From the IMG/VR virus record IMGVR_UViG_3300045988_005313, positions 1 through 5,554 of that record: 5,554 bases of DNA; one strand, 5' to 3'. The notes beneath the pieces are model-generated. The model was given only the letters and a program-made list of their open reading frames with translations. It was not told the origin of the DNA and did not search any database. The stretch's first letter is position 1. The number at the start of each line of letters is the position of its first letter. Source of the stretch: a virus. This document shows positions 1 to 5,554 of the stretch, in pieces. The position numbers and the translations under genes are program-made.

Positions 1-99
1 GTTTTTTTTTTTTTTTGGTAAAATGTAGAAAAAAGGAGGTGAGATTAATGAGCTACCGAAAAAGCGTAAATCCCAAGACGGACAAGAAGGTCTTTACCA
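1..99. repeat. Terminal direct repeat, copy 1 (identical to 5456..5554). It marks a circular genome linearised with overlap.
   Basis: Base-by-base comparison. G + T15 + GGTAAAATGTAGAAAAAAGGAGGTGAGATTAATGAGCTACCGAAAAAGCGTAAATCCCAAGACGGACAAGAAGGTCTTTACCA occurs at both ends with an offset of 5455 nt. Confidence 0.95.
16..24 (+). promoter_or_regulatory. Candidate extended -10 promoter, TGgTAAAAT, directly after the T15 tract. The second copy is at 5471..5479.
   Basis: T16 G17 g18 followed by TAAAAT at 19..24 fits the TGnTATAAT extended -10 pattern. There is no good -35, which extended -10 promoters can lack. The predicted start near 31 would leave the RBS at 33..41 and the ATG at 48 in the leader. 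Confidence 0.35.
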
Positions 100-167
100 A
101 CACCGCAAAAAAGACCAAGAAAATCAACGTGAATCCGAAACCCAGCCGGGGAGGAATCAGATTATGA
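48..167 (+). CDS. Small, highly basic 39-aa protein (MSYRKSVNPKTDKKVFTNTAKKTKKINVNPKPSRGGIRL). Putative DNA-binding/packaging protein, analogous to phiX174 J or gokushovirus ORF8.
   Basis: Hand translation. ATG 48 is preceded by AAGGAGGTG (33..41) with a 6-nt spacer. It has 9 K + 3 R against 1 D. The stop TGA 165..167 overlaps the next ATG (164) as ATGA. It is the first ORF after the terminator/promoter region. It is absent from the ORF track only because it is shorter than 60 aa. Confidence 0.65.
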   Translation: MSYRKSVNPKTDKKVFTNTAKKTKKINVNPKPSRGGIRL

Positions 168-346
168 AAGACGTGGTGAACGTTTACATCGACCACGAAT
201 GCAAAGACGAACTTCTGGACTGGGCAGAAGAATTTAAGACCAGCAGAAGCAAAGCAGCAGCAGTGGCCGTAAAGATCGGGCTGAAACACAAAGAAGAAAT
301 GTACAACCAGCTAGACAAAGAATGGAGAGAAAAATATGCTTTTTGA
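164..346 (+). CDS. 60-aa hypothetical protein with a ribbon-helix-helix-like pattern (possible CopG/Arc-type DNA-binding protein).
   Basis: GGAGG at 150..154 lies 9 nt upstream of ATG 164, and the ATGA overlap joins it to the upstream ORF. The sequence VNVYIDHECKDELLDWAEEFKTSRSKAAAVAVKIGL aligns without gaps to the beta-strand/helix/turn/helix pattern of CopG (LTITLSESVLENLEKMAREMGLSKSAMISVALENY). Confidence 0.55.
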   Translation: MKDVVNVYIDHECKDELLDWAEEFKTSRSKAAAVAVKIGLKHKEEMYNQLDKEWREKYAF

Positions 347-587
347 AATTTACAGCATCAAAGACGAACTCGCAGGGACTTTCGGCAACCTGATGGTGGT
401 CAACCCGAAGGTGGCAGCACGAACCTTCCGGTGGATGACCGAGGAGATGGAAAAGGCCGACTGCGCGGACAAGCGCGTGTACAAGATGGCAGAGTACGAC
501 AACGAAACCGGCAAGATCATGCCAATCATGCCGGAAATGGTGTACAACATCGAACAGGCGAAAAAGGAGATCACCGATAATGGTTAA
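336..587 (+). CDS. VP5: Gokushovirus VP5-like non-structural protein (83 aa).
   Basis: The N-terminus MLFEIYSIKDELAGTF...AARTFRW and the later YDNETGKI segment fit the VP5 family pattern as I remember it. GGAGA at 324..328 lies 7 nt upstream. It overlaps the upstream ORF by 11 nt and VP3 by 8 nt. Its position directly upstream of VP3 is as in gokushoviruses. Confidence 0.75.
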   Translation: MLFEIYSIKDELAGTFGNLMVVNPKVAARTFRWMTEEMEKADCADKRVYKMAEYDNETGKIMPIMPEMVYNIEQAKKEITDNG

Positions 588-1071
588 AATATACAAACCA
601 TACGGCGATGAGAAGCCGGAAGCCAAACCGAACAATCCCGGCAACCAGTACGAACCGGAGTATAAAGAGCGGTACGATGAAAACGGGGAAGCATACCTCG
701 AAAAAGTGGGCGAGGTGGACACCTACGAAAAAATCCAGAGCTACCGCGACGAATGCGATGTGATGGCAATCCTCAGCCGGTACGCTGCCGGTGATGAAAC
801 GGCACTCGCAAGACCGGGGTACTACATCGACACAACCAAACTGCCCGCAACGTACACCGAATATATCAACATGATGCGAGACCAGCGCGAGAAGTTCGAT
901 CAGCTGCCGCTGAGCATCCGTCAGGCGTTTGGCATGAGCTTCGAAAAGTGGGCAGCAAGCGCCGGTGAACAGGAATGGTGTGAAAAAATGGGCATTTTGC
1001 CGAAAACAAGCGCTGCAGCACAGCCTGATCAGAGCGCCGAAAATGACAAAGTGCACAAAAAGGAGGAATAA
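580..1071 (+). CDS. VP3: Internal scaffolding protein VP3 (163 aa).
   Basis: The segment SYRDECDVMAILSRYAAGDE...EKFDQLPLSIRQAFGMSFEKW resembles conserved gokushovirus VP3 blocks. AAGGAGA at 564..570 lies upstream. The gene sits directly upstream of VP1. Confidence 0.8.
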   Translation: MVKIYKPYGDEKPEAKPNNPGNQYEPEYKERYDENGEAYLEKVGEVDTYEKIQSYRDECDVMAILSRYAAGDETALARPGYYIDTTKLPATYTEYINMMRDQREKFDQLPLSIRQAFGMSFEKWAASAGEQEWCEKMGILPKTSAAAQPDQSAENDKVHKKEE

Positions 1072-1076
1072 AAAGC

Positions 1077-2798
1077 ATGAACCGCAACAGCGAACAGCAT
1101 TATAGCCAAGTGCCACACGCAGAAATCCGGCGAGCCAGATTCAAGCGAGATTTCAGCCTGCTGACAACCATCAACGAAGGCGATCTTGTACCGATCTACT
1201 GTGATGAGGTACTTCCTGCAGATACCTTCAAAATCAACCTAAACAGTCTGGTGCGCATGGCAACCCCACTTTATCCAGTTATGGATAACGCGTACATGGA
1301 CTTCTATTTCTTCTTTGTTCCGGCACGTCTGCTGTGGGATCACTTTGTAAATCTGATGGGACAGAACGATAAAACGTTCTGGGCAGAGACAACCGAATAC
1401 ACGACACCGGTAACCACTGCACCCGCTGGGGGCTGGAAAGTTGGCACGATCGCGGACTATTTCGGCATTCCTACCGGAGTAAGCGGGCTGAAAGTCAACT
1501 CCATGCCGTTCCGAGCTTATGTAAAGATCTGGAACGAATGGTTTCGAGACGAAAATCTCCAGCAGCCGGCACAGATGACCATGGGAGACGAAACAACCAC
1601 CGGCAGCAACGGCGAAGCAACCGGCAAGCAGAATGAGCTTAGCAAGTCGACCTTGCCGCTGACGCTGGGCGGAGAAACCGACTACATCACCGAAGCACAG
1701 AAAGGCGCAAAGCCGCTGAAAGTCTGCAAATACAAAGACTACTTTACCAGCTGTCTGCCTTCACCGCTCAAAGCAGCAGAACCGGTGAGCATCCCGATGA
1801 CAGGCAACGCAGCTGTAAGTCTGTATGACAATCAGCAACTGACGAACAAAACATCGACAAGCGAATACATCTTCCTGAACAGCACAGATAAAAACTTCAC
1901 AGTAGGAACAACGCCATATATCACGAACTGGCCAACAACATACAACAAGGGAAAACCGGCACTGATCAACGGAGCAAAAGACGTAAACAGCGCAACACAA
2001 AACGACGCATTTCTGGGGGCAGATTTGAGCACCGTGAGTGCAACGACCATCAACGAGCTGCGCAACGCAATCGCGGTGCAGCACATCTTTGAGAGAGACG
2101 CCAGAACCGGCACGCGGTACAAAGAAATCCTCAACGGTGCATGGGGCGTGACCAGCCCGGACGCACGGCTTGACCGAAGCGAATACATCGGCGGCTACAG
2201 AATGCCGATCAATATCAATCAGGTAATCCAAACGTCCAGCACCGACACGACCAGCCCGCAAGGCAACACAGCAGCGTACAGCATGACAACCTTGAGCCGG
2301 GAAATGTGCACATACTCGGCAACGGAGCACGGCTATGTGATCGGACTGGCAGCGGCGCGAGTAGATCACAGTTACCAGCAGGGACTTTCGAGGATGTGGA
2401 CAAGAAGCACCAGATTCACGTACTACGACCCGATGCTGGCAAACCTCGGTGAACAGGCAGTACTGAATCAGGAAATCTATGCACAGGGCAACGCAACCGA
2501 CACGGAAGTGTTTGGTTACCAGGAGGCCTGGGCCGATTATCGGTACAGGACTAACATGGTAACAAGCGAAATGCGCAGCAGCTACGCACAGACGCTGGAC
2601 GCATGGCACTACGCCGACAAGTACAACGAGCTGCCGAAGCTGTCTAGCAGCTGGATCAAGGAAGGTACGGAGAACATCGACAGGACGCTGGCAGTAAAAA
2701 GCGGTCTGTCTCACCAATTTATCTGCAACTTCTTCTATGATCAGACGTGGACGCGTCCCATGCCTATTTACAGCGTACCGGGTCTGGACACGATCTAA
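1077..2798 (+). CDS. VP1: Major capsid protein VP1 (573 aa), Microviridae F-protein family.
   Basis: Hallmark N-terminal blocks are present: FKRDFSLLTTINEGDLVPIYCDEVLPADTF, RMATPLYPVMDNAYMDFYFFFVPARLLWDHF, ADYFGIP, FRAYVKIWNEWFRD, DYFTSCLP and TINELRNAIAVQHIFERDARTGTRYKEIL. AGGAGG at 1061..1066 lies 10 nt upstream. Confidence 0.97.
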   Translation: MNRNSEQHYSQVPHAEIRRARFKRDFSLLTTINEGDLVPIYCDEVLPADTFKINLNSLVRMATPLYPVMDNAYMDFYFFFVPARLLWDHFVNLMGQNDKTFWAETTEYTTPVTTAPAGGWKVGTIADYFGIPTGVSGLKVNSMPFRAYVKIWNEWFRDENLQQPAQMTMGDETTTGSNGEATGKQNELSKSTLPLTLGGETDYITEAQKGAKPLKVCKYKDYFTSCLPSPLKAAEPVSIPMTGNAAVSLYDNQQLTNKTSTSEYIFLNSTDKNFTVGTTPYITNWPTTYNKGKPALINGAKDVNSATQNDAFLGADLSTVSATTINELRNAIAVQHIFERDARTGTRYKEILNGAWGVTSPDARLDRSEYIGGYRMPININQVIQTSSTDTTSPQGNTAAYSMTTLSREMCTYSATEHGYVIGLAAARVDHSYQQGLSRMWTRSTRFTYYDPMLANLGEQAVLNQEIYAQGNATDTEVFGYQEAWADYRYRTNMVTSEMRSSYAQTLDAWHYADKYNELPKLSSSWIKEGTENIDRTLAVKSGLSHQFICNFFYDQTWTRPMPIYSVPGLDTI

Positions 2799-2810
2799 TG
2801 AGGTGAAACC

Positions 2811-3734
2811 ATGGGATGGGAAGCAATCCTTCTGCAAGCACTGCCGACCCTGATAAACGTAGCTGGAAACCTCCTGCAAACCGGAATCAGCAACTTGGGC
2901 AGCGCAAAAAGCAGCCAAACAATGAACAATAGCACCGAAACGAGCAGCAGCACAAGCACCAGCACGAGCGGAAGCATGACAGAAAGCGGTGAAACAACCA
3001 GACAAGGAAGCATCTCAGGAATTGCAGATGCACTAAAAACGGCAATGGGAACACCGACCGGCAACAACAGCCAAACTGCGGGAAACTTCAACGCGATGCA
3101 AACGCAAACCGCAAACAACCTGCAAACCGGACAGTGGACAATGGCAAACATGATGAACATGTTCTCAAATCTGGTAAGCAACGGCCTAGACTATGCAAGC
3201 ATGACCAGCGCAAGGCAGTACAACAGCAAAGAAGCAGCTGTACAACGCGAATGGTCAGAAAGAATGAGCAGCACCGCATACCAACGCGGGGTGAAAGACC
3301 TACAAGCGGCAGGGCTTAACCCGGTACTAGCAGCATACAACGGTTTCGGGGCAAGCAGTCCAAGCGGAGGAACAGCAAGCACCGGTATGCAAAACTTTGC
3401 ACAGACCAGTGCAGCAGCAATACCGTCAGCGCACACCGCAACAATGCAAGCCATGTACGACTACGGCAACAACACAGCCCAGTTTCTGCAAAACGCAATG
3501 CAAGTTATCAGCAACGCGAAAGAAACAAGTCAGTACGGCATGGCACGAAGTATGCAGAACATTGCAAACCAGATCAGCACCAGCAGCGCAAAGACAGTGC
3601 AGAACATAACGCAAGATCAAAGTAGCCAAACATACACGGATAAACTTGCAGGAGTACCAAAGATCGACATACCAAGCGATAAGAAGAAGCAAGGAGGGTT
3701 TACACACGGGGGAGGCGGAGGCCGCGGGAGATAA
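2811..3734 (+). CDS. VP2: Minor capsid / DNA pilot protein VP2 (307 aa).
   Basis: It carries the conserved gokushovirus VP2 block MSSTAYQRGVKDLQAAGLNPVLA (nt 3267..3335). It is Q/N/S/T/A-rich, with a hydrophobic N-terminus. GAGGTG at 2800..2805 lies 5 nt upstream. It sits directly downstream of VP1. Confidence 0.9.
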   Translation: MGWEAILLQALPTLINVAGNLLQTGISNLGSAKSSQTMNNSTETSSSTSTSTSGSMTESGETTRQGSISGIADALKTAMGTPTGNNSQTAGNFNAMQTQTANNLQTGQWTMANMMNMFSNLVSNGLDYASMTSARQYNSKEAAVQREWSERMSSTAYQRGVKDLQAAGLNPVLAAYNGFGASSPSGGTASTGMQNFAQTSAAAIPSAHTATMQAMYDYGNNTAQFLQNAMQVISNAKETSQYGMARSMQNIANQISTSSAKTVQNITQDQSSQTYTDKLAGVPKIDIPSDKKKQGGFTHGGGGGRGR

Positions 3735-3737
3735 GCA

Positions 3738-3766
3738 TTGACAGATGTAGAAAAGAGGTGTATACT
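3738..3766 (+). promoter_or_regulatory. Near-consensus sigma70-type promoter: TTGACA (3738..3743), 17-nt spacer, TATACT (3761..3766).
   Basis: Read directly. The -35 box is perfect, the spacing is optimal at 17 nt, and the -10 box matches 5 of 6. It lies in the 75-nt gap between the VP2 stop (3734) and ATG 3810. The predicted start near 3773..3775 leaves the RBS AAGGAG (3797..3802) in the leader. Confidence 0.5.
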
Positions 3767-3809
3767 ATGGGTGTATCAATCGTACACTTTAAGCCAAAGG
3801 AGCAGTAAA

Positions 3810-4019
3810 ATGAAAAGCCAAGTGAGCAAGAGAATCAATATAAATCTAACAGACCGCGAGATCGTAGCACTCGAAAGGCTTCAAGACGAAATGACAACAC
3901 GGAACTGGAAGATGAACCAAAGCGACATCATCAGGGAAGCAATCGTATACTACTGCATGAGAGAGACGGGAGCAGTATTTGCAAACGAGTGGAAACCGAA
4001 GGAAAAGGAGCAAAGTTGA
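3810..4019 (+). CDS. 69-aa ribbon-helix-helix protein, CopG/Arc/MetJ-like putative transcriptional repressor.
   Basis: I chose ATG 3810 with AAGGAG 7 nt upstream over the track's TTG 3738 start. The sequence SKRININLTDREIVALERLQDEM-(loop)-NQSDIIREAIVYYCM matches the RHH pattern of CopG (KKRLTITLSESVLENLEKMAREMG-LSKSAMISVALENY): alternating beta-strand, helix A, then helix B starting with an N/S-x-S/D cap. Confidence 0.7.
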   Translation: MKSQVSKRININLTDREIVALERLQDEMTTRNWKMNQSDIIREAIVYYCMRETGAVFANEWKPKEKEQS

Positions 4020-4034
4020 CGCGGTTACACCGCG
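4020..4034 (+). repeat. Short GC-rich hairpin directly after the RHH gene stop (CGCGGT tac ACCGCG).
   Basis: 6-bp perfect stem (4020-4025 / 4029-4034) with a 3-nt loop. No T tail follows, so it is not a canonical intrinsic terminator. Confidence 0.6.
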
Positions 4035-4068
4035 CCAATGGGCAACAATAATCCATGGGAAAAAATGA

Positions 4069-4079
4069 GCGGGAGCTAA
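4069..4079 (+). repeat. 11-nt direct repeat GCGGGAGCTAA, copy 1 (copy 2 at 5379..5389).
   Basis: Exact match read in both intergenic regions flanking VP4. Each copy lies just upstream of a long bulged hairpin with a G5/C5 block. Confidence 0.85.
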
Positions 4080-4089
4080 ATTTTGTGTC

Positions 4090-4129
4090 AGTGGGGGGAA
4101 TAGACATCAAGAGGGTCTATTCCCCCACT
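4090..4129 (+). repeat. Long stem-loop: 15 bp, one bulged G, 9-nt loop ATCAAGAGG.
   Basis: AGT(G)GGGGGAATAGAC pairs with GTCTATTCCCCCACT. I checked the pairing position by position from 4090-4129 in to 4105-4115, with G4093 bulged. Confidence 0.85.
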
Positions 4130-4157
4130 CTCCCCGGGAAGGAGGAAACGTCCATAC

Positions 4158-5306
4158 ATGGCATGTGCAAGGCCGAACATAAGAATTTTTAGCGATACCG
4201 ACAAAGACTATTTTGCACCGCTGGACTGGTACATACAGCACGGCAAAAAAAGAACCGGCAAGCCGGACATGATAGCAACACAGAAAAGGCGCGAGCGCCA
4301 GCTGAAGGAGATGATCAAGACCGGCGAAGCAGTGCTATGCCCGTGCAAACGCTGCAATGGCTGCATCATGGACAGGGGCAAGAGCTGGGCAAACAGAATG
4401 GAGATGGAGCTGCCATACCATGATCAAGCGTGGTTTTTGACGTTGACTTATGATAACGATCACGCGCCAATGAGCTATGATCAGGGACTAGGCATAGACG
4501 AGCTGACCGGCGAGGTAGTAACGGAAAACTTAACGCTTGACTATACGGACCTAGAAAAATTCTGGAAAAGGCTCAGACGCTGGACAGAGTACAACGATAA
4601 AGCAATCTACATAGACTACAACGGCAAGAAAAAAAATGATCTGATGTATTACGCTGGCGGCGAATACGGAGGAAAAACACACAGACCGCACTACCATGCA
4701 ATAGTATACGGCTTAAAAATTGAAAAAGAGGAGCTGAAAGAGTACAAGAGGGCAAAAGGCAAAGTATACTATACCTGCGAATGGCTCACGAAGCTATGGG
4801 GCAAAGGCTTTGTAATCATCGGTGCAGCGGAATGGCAGAGCATGGCATACACCGCAAGATACTGCACCAAAAAAAGCTATGGAGCAGGTGCAAAGGAATA
4901 TTACAAGAATCTGGCGATACAACCGGAAGATAGCAGAATGTCAACCAATCCGGCAATCGGATGGAGGTACTACGAAGAACATAAAGAGGAAATCTATAAA
5001 AACGACAAAATCCAACTCAAGAAAGGAAGGAGCTGTAAACCGCCTACATACTTCGACAAGCTCTTTGATCTGGAGCACTCAGAAGCCGAACCGCTGACGG
5101 AAGAAGAGTGCAAAGGCATTGAGGATGTAATAATAAAAGCCGAATCCGAAGAACTGAAAGAAATCAAGCGAAAAAGGCGAAAACTTGCCAATGACGCACT
5201 GTTTAATCAGCTCAAACAGACCGGCCTAACTATGCAAGAGTATTATAAACTAAAAGACCAACGGAATCAAGAAAAATTTAAACAGCTGATCAGAACCGAG
5301 GTATAG
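4158..5306 (+). CDS. VP4: Rolling-circle replication initiator VP4 (HUH endonuclease, phiX174 gpA family), 382 aa.
   Basis: Motif I is FLTLTY (nt 4434..4451). Motif II, the HUH motif, is RPHYHAIVY (HYH at 4689..4697). Motif III is the two-tyrosine YTARYCTKK (4848..4874), comparable to phiX gpA YVAKYVNKK. A Cys cluster CPCKRCNGC lies at 4338..4364. AAGGAGG is at 4139..4145. Confidence 0.95.
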   Translation: MACARPNIRIFSDTDKDYFAPLDWYIQHGKKRTGKPDMIATQKRRERQLKEMIKTGEAVLCPCKRCNGCIMDRGKSWANRMEMELPYHDQAWFLTLTYDNDHAPMSYDQGLGIDELTGEVVTENLTLDYTDLEKFWKRLRRWTEYNDKAIYIDYNGKKKNDLMYYAGGEYGGKTHRPHYHAIVYGLKIEKEELKEYKRAKGKVYYTCEWLTKLWGKGFVIIGAAEWQSMAYTARYCTKKSYGAGAKEYYKNLAIQPEDSRMSTNPAIGWRYYEEHKEEIYKNDKIQLKKGRSCKPPTYFDKLFDLEHSEAEPLTEEECKGIEDVIIKAESEELKEIKRKRRKLANDALFNQLKQTGLTMQEYYKLKDQRNQEKFKQLIRTEV

Positions 5307-5379
5307 CCAGATAGCTGCAAACCAGTCAAGGGCAAGTGAACGCGCTTCGCGCGCCCTTGACTAGTCCGCAGCCATCCGG
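5307..5379. repeat. 73-nt composite imperfect palindrome starting at the first base after the VP4 stop codon.
   Basis: The outer arms are 5307-5318 / 5368-5379 (10 of 12 pairs). The perfect 10-bp core is AGTCAAGGGC (5324-5333) / GCCCTTGACT (5353-5362). The apical GCGC ttc GCGC mini-hairpin is at 5342-5352. Confidence 0.85.
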
Positions 5380-5389
5380 CGGGAGCTAA
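5379..5389 (+). repeat. 11-nt direct repeat GCGGGAGCTAA, copy 2 (copy 1 at 4069..4079).
   Basis: Exact match. It overlaps the last base of the palindrome and lies 2 nt upstream of the hairpin at 5392..5423. Confidence 0.85.
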
Positions 5390-5391
5390 TC

Positions 5392-5430
5392 AAGGGGGTT
5401 CACCACAAAGTGGTGACCCCCTTCTTTATT
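5392..5430 (+). terminator. Strong stem-loop (14 bp, one bulged T, loop AAA) followed by CTTCTTTATT. Possible first terminator after VP4, or an ssDNA structural signal.
   Basis: AAGGGGG(T)TCACCAC aaa GTGGTGACCCCCTT was paired position by position (5392-5423). The downstream tail is only partly T-rich. Confidence 0.4.
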
Positions 5431-5440
5431 ATGAGAACGC

Positions 5441-5471
5441 ACAAGGGAAGCCCTTGTTTTTTTTTTTTTTT
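5441..5471 (+). terminator. Rho-independent terminator: ACAAGGG aag CCCTTGT stem followed by a T15 run.
   Basis: 7-bp stem (5441-5447 / 5451-5457) with a 3-nt loop, running straight into 15 consecutive T (5457..5471, equal to 2..16 in copy 1). It lies downstream of the last gene of the single-strand gene array. Confidence 0.75.
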
Positions 5472-5502
5472 GGTAAAATGTAGAAAAAAGGAGGTGAGAT
5501 TA

Positions 5503-5554
5503 ATGAGCTACCGAAAAAGCGTAAATCCCAAGACGGACAAGAAGGTCTTTACCA
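5503..5554 (+). CDS. Second, truncated copy of the small basic protein gene (the same locus as 48..167 on the circle).
   Basis: It lies inside the 99-nt terminal redundancy. ATG 5503 equals 48 + 5455. The window end cuts it off. Confidence 0.6.
   Translation, partial: MSYRKSVNPKTDKKVFT

Follow-up and report, generated by a model that had tools for sequence, protein, structure and literature searches.

The RHH (ribbon-helix-helix) regulators of small plasmids and of phage P22 are the closest known systems for the gene considered here, a 60-codon open reading frame (ORF60) of a gokushovirus-like microvirus, contained in a 5,554-nucleotide (nt) stretch of DNA (IMG/VR record IMGVR_UViG_3300045988_005313, positions 1 to 5,554; hereafter the window). 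CopG (RepA) of pMV158 (PDB 2cpg, 1b01 and 1ea4; Pfam RHH_1, PF01402) is a basic protein of 45 amino acids (aa), co-transcribed immediately 5' of repB in a replicon whose Rep is, like that of microviruses, a rolling-circle HUH protein; ORF56 of the Sulfolobus plasmid pRN1 is a minimal RHH protein without a third helix, lies directly 5' of the replicase gene and autoregulates that operon; and Arc and Mnt (PHROG 3431 and 2639) are the two RHH proteins of the P22 immI region, Mnt having a C-terminal helix beyond the RHH core that it uses to form tetramers. Extra C-terminal helices of RHH proteins serve for dimer linkage in Mnt and for partner binding in the RHH antitoxins. Microviruses count as minimal phages whose gene set is fixed at six to eight, gene expression in the phiX174 model depends only on fixed promoter and terminator strengths, and, to our knowledge, the group is regarded as being without dedicated regulators; a literature search combining RHH, CopG or repressor with Microviridae or gokushovirus found no relevant description in the searchable literature. 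On balance, we favor the reading that ORF60 is a lineage-restricted accessory gene for a protein with a predicted RHH unit and an extra helix, likely a tuner of transcription that binds double-stranded DNA. Compared with CopG, the 60-aa product is longer, mildly acidic instead of basic, and provided with the additional helix, which it shares with Mnt and which ORF56 lacks.

The ORF60 product, MKDVVNVYIDHECKDELLDWAEEFKTSRSKAAAVAVKIGLKHKEEMYNQLDKEWREKYAF (60 aa), is like ORF56 a small protein of a small replicon, and both contain a V-Y-I strand motif. When profiles of the ORF60 family were compared with the PDB, ORF56 (2k9i/3ft7), a CopG-like RHH protein, was the sole credible match (E 0.0011 with an eight-sequence profile, A3, and 0.012 with a 14-sequence alignment, A5), and hmmsearch aligned the two proteins without gaps over the strand (VYI in both), helix A and into helix B. 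A family member 45% identical to ORF60 (P0004; BLASTP E 1e-17) matches phrog_3431, labelled 'Arc-like repressor', over 57 residues (E 3.8e-7). Sub-threshold matches to NF041793, the NCBIfam model of the ORF56 copy-control family, were obtained for 5/14 members (best E 0.0019), and the Pfam matches of relatives, likewise sub-threshold, were to RHH_5 (E 0.003-0.013), RHH_1 (0.019) and, in one member, RelB (0.063). The AlphaFold2 model built from the 14-sequence alignment (mean predicted local distance difference test, pLDDT, 89.4; predicted template modelling score, pTM, 0.61) is extended over residues 1-10 and has helices at 11-23, 28-41 and 43-58. Almost all of the top 50 Foldseek matches of this model in the PDB are RHH chains, from ORF56, CopG, StnY, CopA_SO, VapB, TacA and SvtR to MazE, AmrZ, Arc, CdbA, PutA, NikA, MatP, AtaR and KacA; the superpositions, which rest on the predicted model of ORF60 and not on a solved structure, extend over ~42 residues with probabilities up to 0.98, target-normalised template modelling scores (TM) of 0.72-0.78 and root-mean-square deviations (rmsd) of 1.4-1.8 Å. 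ORF56 is again the best match (probability 0.98, TM 0.78, rmsd 1.6 Å), and CopG (TM 0.72-0.73, rmsd 1.4-1.8 Å) agrees with the model in its beta-alpha-alpha topology and resembles it in the helix-B cap. In BFVD, the model matches phage proteins of the CopG, Arc and repressor types, among them one from the marine Microvirus mar32 to which an RHH CopG domain had been assigned automatically (UniProt A0A8F5ML28; probability 0.99, TM 0.75, rmsd 2.5 Å). This mar32 protein, 47 aa long, 18% identical and without the third helix of ORF60, was not returned by exhaustive sequence searches with the ORF60 family, and was therefore probably acquired independently or is only very distantly related. Taken together, the profile match in the PDB, the transitive link through P0004 to PHROG, the sub-threshold matches of the relatives, and the model with its Foldseek matches led us to accept the RHH fold for ORF60, which we regard as highly probable.

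The details of the protein are in line with this assignment. Within the strand, V5, V7 and I9 are hydrophobic and alternate with the polar or aromatic N6 and Y8, a pattern present in the 14 family members; the helix-B cap reads T/C-S/T-x-S in the family and aligns to L-T-L-S of ORF56; and the charge is polarised, residues 10-24 having a net charge of -6 and residues 25-41 of +5, as in DNA-binding RHH proteins. Basic N-terminal arms, present in distant homologues, also fit an RHH protein. Six positions are invariant in the 14-member alignment (Y8, W20, S29, G39, H42 and E45), and helix A holds most of the amino-acid differences between the two close ORF60 allele types. The conserved third helix, helix C, is not part of a minimal RHH unit.

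Several observations weigh against an RHH fold, or against DNA binding as its use. The window protein alone has no match in Pfam, NCBIfam or PADLOC and nothing credible in the PDB, its best PHROG E-value (0.057) is insignificant, and the matches of its relatives to curated Pfam and NCBIfam models all fall under the curated cut-offs. A first AlphaFold2 model, from two sequences, was poor (pLDDT 65), and the fold search with it was uninformative; the Foldseek E-values are only 0.4-5 against the PDB and 0.2-5 when BFVD is included, values that reflect how short the domain is (~40 residues). The protein is slightly acidic overall (isoelectric point, pI, 5.6; net charge -2) and does not have the basic N-terminal arm that precedes the strand in the distant homologues, an arm lost in the clade of the window. 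Three of the six invariant residues, G39, H42 and E45, are found where helix B ends and passes, through L40, into helix C, and not in the DNA-reading strand. Finally, an operator search in the two promoter-like regions, P1 and P2, gave no site assignable to ORF60, and the 10-mer ATGTAGAAAA was rejected as its operator, being only partly conserved and not clearly above chance; this purine-rich 10-mer occurs in both promoter regions, overlaps a sequence resembling a ribosome-binding site and varies among relatives. A similarity to the C-terminus of an E2 ubiquitin-conjugase in the single-sequence search (E 0.11) was dismissed as a chance similarity of one helix.

The existence of the gene itself was judged by its conservation. 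The length of ORF60 is no proof of coding, as spurious minus-strand ORFs of at least 60 aa are numerous in the window; since 60 codons do not exceed chance, conservation is the deciding test. In the comparison set of 22 close relatives, made up of 20 metagenomic contigs from human and other samples and two pig-derived GenBank records, the order of the 39-, 60- and 83-aa genes is retained and the ORF60 frame is open in 22/22, the sole indel being a 3-nt in-frame insertion in two of them. In clade A (11 genomes, ~5% nucleotide divergence across ORF60), the 23 variable sites in codons 2-57 are distributed 1/0/22 over the three codon positions, and those of clade B 2/0/15, so that 37/40 of the variable sites within clades are at third positions. 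The pairwise ratio of nonsynonymous to synonymous divergence (dN/dS) is 0 for pairs from one clade, 0.05-0.09 for clade A against clade B, and 0.25 in the comparison with L046, which is more distant, and genomes differing by ~5% in nucleotides here encode an unchanged protein. ORF60 is, thus, a real gene under purifying selection. A frame open by chance, in a spacer that separates the J-like gene from VP5 and does not code for protein, would account for its shortness, for the lack of a curated family match of the window protein, for its being left unannotated in the GenBank records MG945373 and MT135351, and for the relatives in which the slot holds no gene; nevertheless, this explanation is refuted by the pattern of conservation just described, homologues with as little as 31% identity occupy the same position and a fold is predicted with high confidence, so that we consider a spacer extremely improbable.

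These results sustain the description of the ORF in the initial annotation of this DNA, made from its sequence alone, and support its interpretation in part. The ORF had been given exactly the limits and translation reported here, an ATGA overlap with the basic 39-aa gene and an 11-nt overlap with VP5, all of which are correct. It had been described as RHH-like, with one strand, two helices and an S-R-S cap aligned without gaps to the CopG pattern, and these elements coincide with those of the AlphaFold2 model and of the gap-free alignment to ORF56, while the RHH signal sought in profile and structure prediction was found with the family profile and the 14-sequence model. Conservation and dN/dS in relatives, which the annotation had named as a check, gave the open frames and low ratios described above, with none of the stop codons or frameshifts in the 22 close relatives that it had associated with a non-coding spacer; and its placement of the gene outside the canonical microvirus core agrees with the absence of ORF60 from most relatives having a 63-70% identical VP5. 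The conserved third helix, and the GTG start (GTGA overlap) that replaces ATG in nearly all relatives, are points that it did not contain.

Regarding the way in which such a protein might act, ORF60 would be translated from the structural-gene messenger RNA, its ATG or GTG start overlapping the stop codon of the J/VP8-like gene; the conservation of this overlap suggests that the two genes are translationally coupled. The Shine-Dalgarno-like GGAGG before ORF60 sits inside the codons for the conserved ...SRGGIRL terminus of the 39-aa protein, whose RGG codons are kept in all relatives. The chain is predicted to fold as an RHH unit (strand 3-9, helix 11-23, T-S-R-S cap, helix 28-41) followed by an amphipathic helix (43-58), and, by analogy with other RHH proteins, two chains would pair their N-terminal strands in a two-stranded ribbon that enters the DNA major groove, with N6 and Y8 as the side chains likely to face the bases and the S/T-rich start of helix B (T26-S29) clamping the phosphates. 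Helix C may hold dimers to one another, as that of Mnt does, or provide the contact for a partner protein. The protein would then bind double-stranded phage DNA sequence-specifically and tune transcription at one of the two promoter-like regions or, in broader terms, it may tune phage transcription or replication. The positions of these elements and of the other features of the window are collected in Table 1.

Table 1. Features of the 5,554-nt window, with the parts of ORF60 given as codon positions
Feature	Position	Strand	Remarks
Exact terminal repeat, 99 nt	1-99 = 5456-5554		unit 5,455 nt
P1, extended -10-like	16..24	+	TGGTAAAAT, after T-run; repeated 5471-5479; conserved in relatives
J/VP8-like gene	48..167	+	39 aa, pI 11.3, DNA-binding; phrog_10695, E 6e-10
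GGAGG, Shine-Dalgarno-like	150..154	+	9 nt 5' of ORF60 ATG
ATGA start/stop overlap	164..167	+	ORF60 ATG 164-166; TGA of 39-aa gene 165-167
ORF60, RHH-like accessory protein	164..346	+	60 aa; stop TGA 344-346; frame kept in relatives
ORF60, predicted RHH beta-strand	170..190	+	residues 3-9 (DVVNVYI); pLDDT 82; aligns to ORF56 pRN1 strand
ORF60, helix A	194..232	+	residues 11-23; acidic; contains invariant W20
ORF60, cap and helix B	239..286	+	T26-S27-R28-S29 and residues 28-41; S29 and G39 invariant
ORF60, extra C-terminal amphipathic helix C	290..337	+	residues 43-58; after invariant H42; contains invariant E45
GGAGAG	324-329	+	candidate VP5 ribosome-binding site
ORF60 3' end/VP5 start overlap	336..346	+	11 nt; VP5 ATG 336
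VP5	336-587	+	Pfam Phage_ORF5; PHROG label: DNA-binding protein
VP3, scaffold	580-1071	+	
VP1, capsid	1077-2798	+	Phage_F, E 1e-159
VP2, pilot	2811-3734	+	
P2, promoter-like, near-consensus	3738-3766	+	TTGACA-17-TATACT; element with subsites 3738..3787
P2 subsites	3745, 3758, 3771; 3783		(A/G)TGTA; inverted TACAC
Mini-ORF, 13 codons	3767-3808		MGVSIVHFKPKEQ and stop
69-aa RHH-like gene	3810..4019	+	directly 5' of VP4; weak Pfam RHH_1 and phrog_876 matches
10-mer GGGAGCTAA(A/T), two copies	4069-4078; 5382-5391		both conserved in close relatives
Hairpin 5' of VP4	4091-4129		GTGGGGGGAATAGAC-ATCAAGAGG-GTCTATTCCCCCAC; conserved
VP4, Rep	4158-5306	+	
Imperfect inverted repeat	5306-5380		35-nt arms, 77% complementary; conserved across clade
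G-rich hairpin	5392-5421		
Terminator, hairpin and T-run	5441-5457		5' of P1

The ORF60 family is rare, with ~14 clusters, all of them in microviruses, and the gene is confined to one lineage of gut gokushovirus-like microviruses. A HMMER search of 1.84 billion representative proteins gave five matches at E <= 0.001, a profile search of 5.8 billion sequences gave 13 clusters, and a scan of IMG/VR with C-terminal patterns found seven contigs with the family; a first IMG/VR scan with N-terminal patterns returned zero contigs, possibly because those patterns began with Met and the relatives start with GTG. Over-extended gene calls excluded, the members are 60-75 aa long and are encoded on contigs of ~5.4-5.7 kb or on fragments of such contigs, immediately 5' of VP5 at every locus examined; this holds also for distant homologues, 31-45% identical, from other microviruses. 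In contrast to the P22 case, no relative of the ORF60 family or of the VP1 capsid gene was found in 185,579 reference bacterial and archaeal genomes, so that nothing suggests a lysogeny-type switch, and a prophage or lysogeny link for ORF60 was discarded.

The slot between the J-like gene and VP5 is variable. In most of the loci with a 63-70% identical VP5 (set L024-L039) it is empty, with a gap of ~12 nt; in L031 (994-1197) and L033 (288-491) it is occupied by a different RHH-like ORF of 67 aa, which matches repressor PHROGs and aligns to the ORF60 family in the RHH register (hhalign E 1e-4, probability 58%), a link by weak profile comparison, as direct BLASTP of ORF60 against this ORF gave no match; and in L029, L035, L038 and L039 it encodes a hydrophobic peptide of 27-30 aa (e.g., MVDILQSTAIVLIAAYIIMNEIRNWRK) that could be a membrane or lysis peptide. 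A second variable slot is found between P1 and the J-like gene, where L009 (3240-3377), L022 and L040-L044 carry an extra small ORF for a hydrophobic Ala/Ile-rich peptide (e.g., ...ETILIIAAAAAVIASSAAITVLTLEMAQDLKERRKK), possibly also a membrane peptide. The more distant L024-L026, without ORF60, carry a 127-aa Peptidase_M15_3 gene (e.g., L024 44-427; E 5e-20) and, 5' of the J-like gene, a conserved helical ORF of 34 aa, MITLKDVKGIFNQLRKILAMLDKIYHALNLDKEE. On the scale of the whole genome, the divergence hot spots are ORF60, VP1 1801-2000, VP2 2801-3100 and 3501-3700, and the 69-aa gene. Between ORF60 allele types A and B, synonymous divergence (dS) is 1.1-2.1, far above the 0.15-0.5 of the flanking J-like gene and VP5, which suggests that the alleles were exchanged by recombination; the ORF60, VP1-loop, VP2 and 69-aa modules may all have been exchanged in this way.

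An exchanged, host-interacting gene would fit this hot spot, and ORF60 might accordingly be an antitoxin-like protein or partner binder, in which the RHH core would be a dimer scaffold and helix C would bind a phage protein or neutralise a host protein, for example the toxin of an abortive-infection toxin-antitoxin system. The location of half of the invariant residues (G39, H42 and E45) where helix B passes into helix C, the mildly acidic character of the protein, the RHH antitoxins with C-terminal extensions among its fold matches (VapB, TacA, AtaR, KacA, MazE and CopA_SO) and two BFVD matches labelled 'Antitoxin' also point in this direction. Nevertheless, the superpositions on antitoxins over the full length are poor (rmsd 5-12 Å), the only Pfam antitoxin match is that of one member to RelB, and selection on the gene is purifying and not diversifying, with dN/dS at most 0.25. 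Moreover, there is no adjacent toxin gene, the neighbours being the J-like gene and VP5, which are without a toxin family match, and PADLOC gave no match for any of the 14 members, for which reason a defence or anti-defence link was also abandoned. We therefore judge a partner-binding role rather unlikely, and retain transcriptional tuning through DNA as the preferred reading.

The exact terminal repeat indicates that the window holds the whole genome of a gokushovirus-like microvirus, a circle of 5,455 nt, and the plus strand of this genome carries all eight genes, in the order J/VP8-like, ORF60, VP5, VP3, VP1, VP2, 69-aa gene and VP4. The nearest GenBank records are the two pig-faeces microviruses named above, at ~89-90% identity. 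An Rfam search of the window returned zero RNA families. Strong ribosome-binding sites of the AGGAGG type and a TG-extended -10 element are present in the genome and suggest a Gram-positive, Bacillota-like host.

P1 is the putative promoter of a J-ORF60-VP5-VP3-VP1-VP2 unit. A palindrome before its T-run was considered as an operator and rejected, as the compensatory changes in its stem do not track the ORF60 alleles, and it is read as a terminator hairpin. ORF60 differs in position from the plasmid proteins that it most resembles: it belongs to the structural operon, far from rep and 3.8 kb 5' of VP4, unlike ORF56, and the CopG-type cassette position, between P2 and the VP4 Rep gene, is that of the 69-aa gene. 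The 69-aa protein appears to be RHH-like as well, on weak but consistent signals: 9/14 members of its family weakly match Pfam RHH_1 (best E 0.0073), and the family matches phrog_876, 'transcriptional repressor', up to E 3e-4. By its location, it seems a better candidate than ORF60 for regulating the Rep gene in the manner of CopG. A comparison of L003-L046 distinguished at least five allele classes of this gene (69, 64, 63, 60 and 54 aa); the N-terminal strand, MKSQV.KRININLT, is almost invariant, the helices and C-termini differ and the promoter DNA is essentially constant, which looks like modular recombination just past the conserved DNA-reading strand. P2 contains (A/G)TGTA subsites and an inverted TACAC, spaced 12-13 bp, and Markov simulations give P about 0.009 for such a cluster. 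L040 and L046 differ in the centre of GTGTA-N7-TACAC and largely retain its arms, L040 having CACAC. The coincidence of an invariant KRININLT strand with an invariant P2 site favors the 69-aa protein, and not ORF60, as the binder of P2, and the subsites are plausibly its autoregulatory operator more than one of ORF60. The mini-ORF directly follows the -10 element of P2, and 4 nt separate its end from the start of the 69-aa gene; relatives retain its first 7-8 codons and stop after 9, a conservation that may be a by-product of operator DNA.

The initial annotation had also called the second small protein RHH-like, in agreement with the signals just mentioned, and had likened the pair to Arc and Mnt in a possible two-repressor circuit. 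In such a circuit ORF60, produced with the structural genes, and the 69-aa protein, produced with Rep, would act jointly on both promoters; one conceivable task of ORF60 is to silence the Rep promoter at a late stage of infection. The resemblance to immI has some foundation, since two RHH proteins (here RHH-like by prediction) occur in one phage, P0004 matches the Arc-like PHROG and Arc is among the fold matches of ORF60; in addition, the two genes are predicted to be transcribed as parts of separate units, one behind P1 and the other behind P2, ATGTAGAAAA(A/G)AGG is common to both promoter regions and P2 has its cluster of GTGTA/TACAC subsites. The layout of immI is, however, absent: the two genes share a strand and belong to separate transcription units, with 3.4 kb between them, promoters that diverge or overlap are lacking, none of the eight plus-strand genes has an antirepressor match and no operator was found for ORF60. 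The two ORF60 allele types combine freely with the at least five allele classes of the 69-aa gene, and the same type of 69-aa gene is present in GenBank relatives (H10-H12 and H15) in which the ORF60 search gave no homologue, indicating that it works without ORF60. The two families, furthermore, align weakly to each other (hhalign probability 11%), and the P2 data favor the 69-aa protein alone at that promoter. A joint circuit is thus unsupported, and we hold it to be improbable.

A related alternative is that ORF60 is an accessory of replication, binding double-stranded DNA near the origin or the Rep promoter and either aiding the HUH rolling-circle Rep, VP4, in the way that the RHH proteins TraY and NikA aid relaxases, or limiting copy number, as is the function of CopG and ORF56 in rolling-circle plasmids. 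The closest matches in both sequence and structure, ORF56 and CopG, are copy-control proteins of small replicons, NikA is among the fold matches, and the gene is flanked by the J-like gene, for a DNA-condensing protein, and by VP5, to which PHROG gives a DNA-binding label and which we take, from phiX174 protein C, to be a packaging and replication switch. A candidate target would be the conserved hairpin 5' of VP4, which could be an origin-like or regulatory element before the Rep gene: four of its base pairs persist in L042 and L045 through two-sided changes (GGG to CCC, G-C to A-U), and its loop is almost invariant. Nevertheless, ORF60 is not beside rep, where the place comparable to that of CopG is taken by the 69-aa gene, most of the related microviruses have no ORF60 and still replicate, no site was identified, and its similarity to ORF56 and CopG is that of a shared fold, from which function does not follow. 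A replication accessory is, for these reasons, unlikely, and tuning of transcription by ORF60 is still preferred. Each copy of the GGGAGCTAA(A/T) 10-mer lies shortly 5' of a G-rich hairpin, namely the one before VP4 and the one that precedes the terminator, and the imperfect inverted repeat right after the VP4 stop could be the complementary-strand origin hairpin of a single-stranded DNA phage.

In summary, the claim made here is a modest one, since few kinds of small protein are commoner in phages and plasmids than RHH regulators. The small accessory proteins of microviruses, with a mean of ~65 aa, are mostly unassigned (global diversity survey, PMC9239249). If one or two of the small proteins discussed here are RHH DNA binders, a concrete function class would be available for part of this "dark" gene set, and regulation of transcription or replication would be suggested for some gokushoviruses. 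As the family is small and its candidate targets fall within ~450 nt of non-coding DNA, binding would be easy to examine by experiment in this system. A more extended, and doubtful, possibility is that some gut gokushoviruses have a regulatory layer of two unrelated RHH proteins, in which the Rep promoter would be under autoregulation by a widespread CopG-like protein acting on the GTGTA repeats, and the lineage-specific ORF60, expressed along with the capsid genes, would exert feedback on transcription or replication or, like an RHH protein of a relaxosome, support the HUH Rep at the origin. Were this so, expression in a 5.5-kb single-stranded DNA phage would be timed or controlled by dosage.

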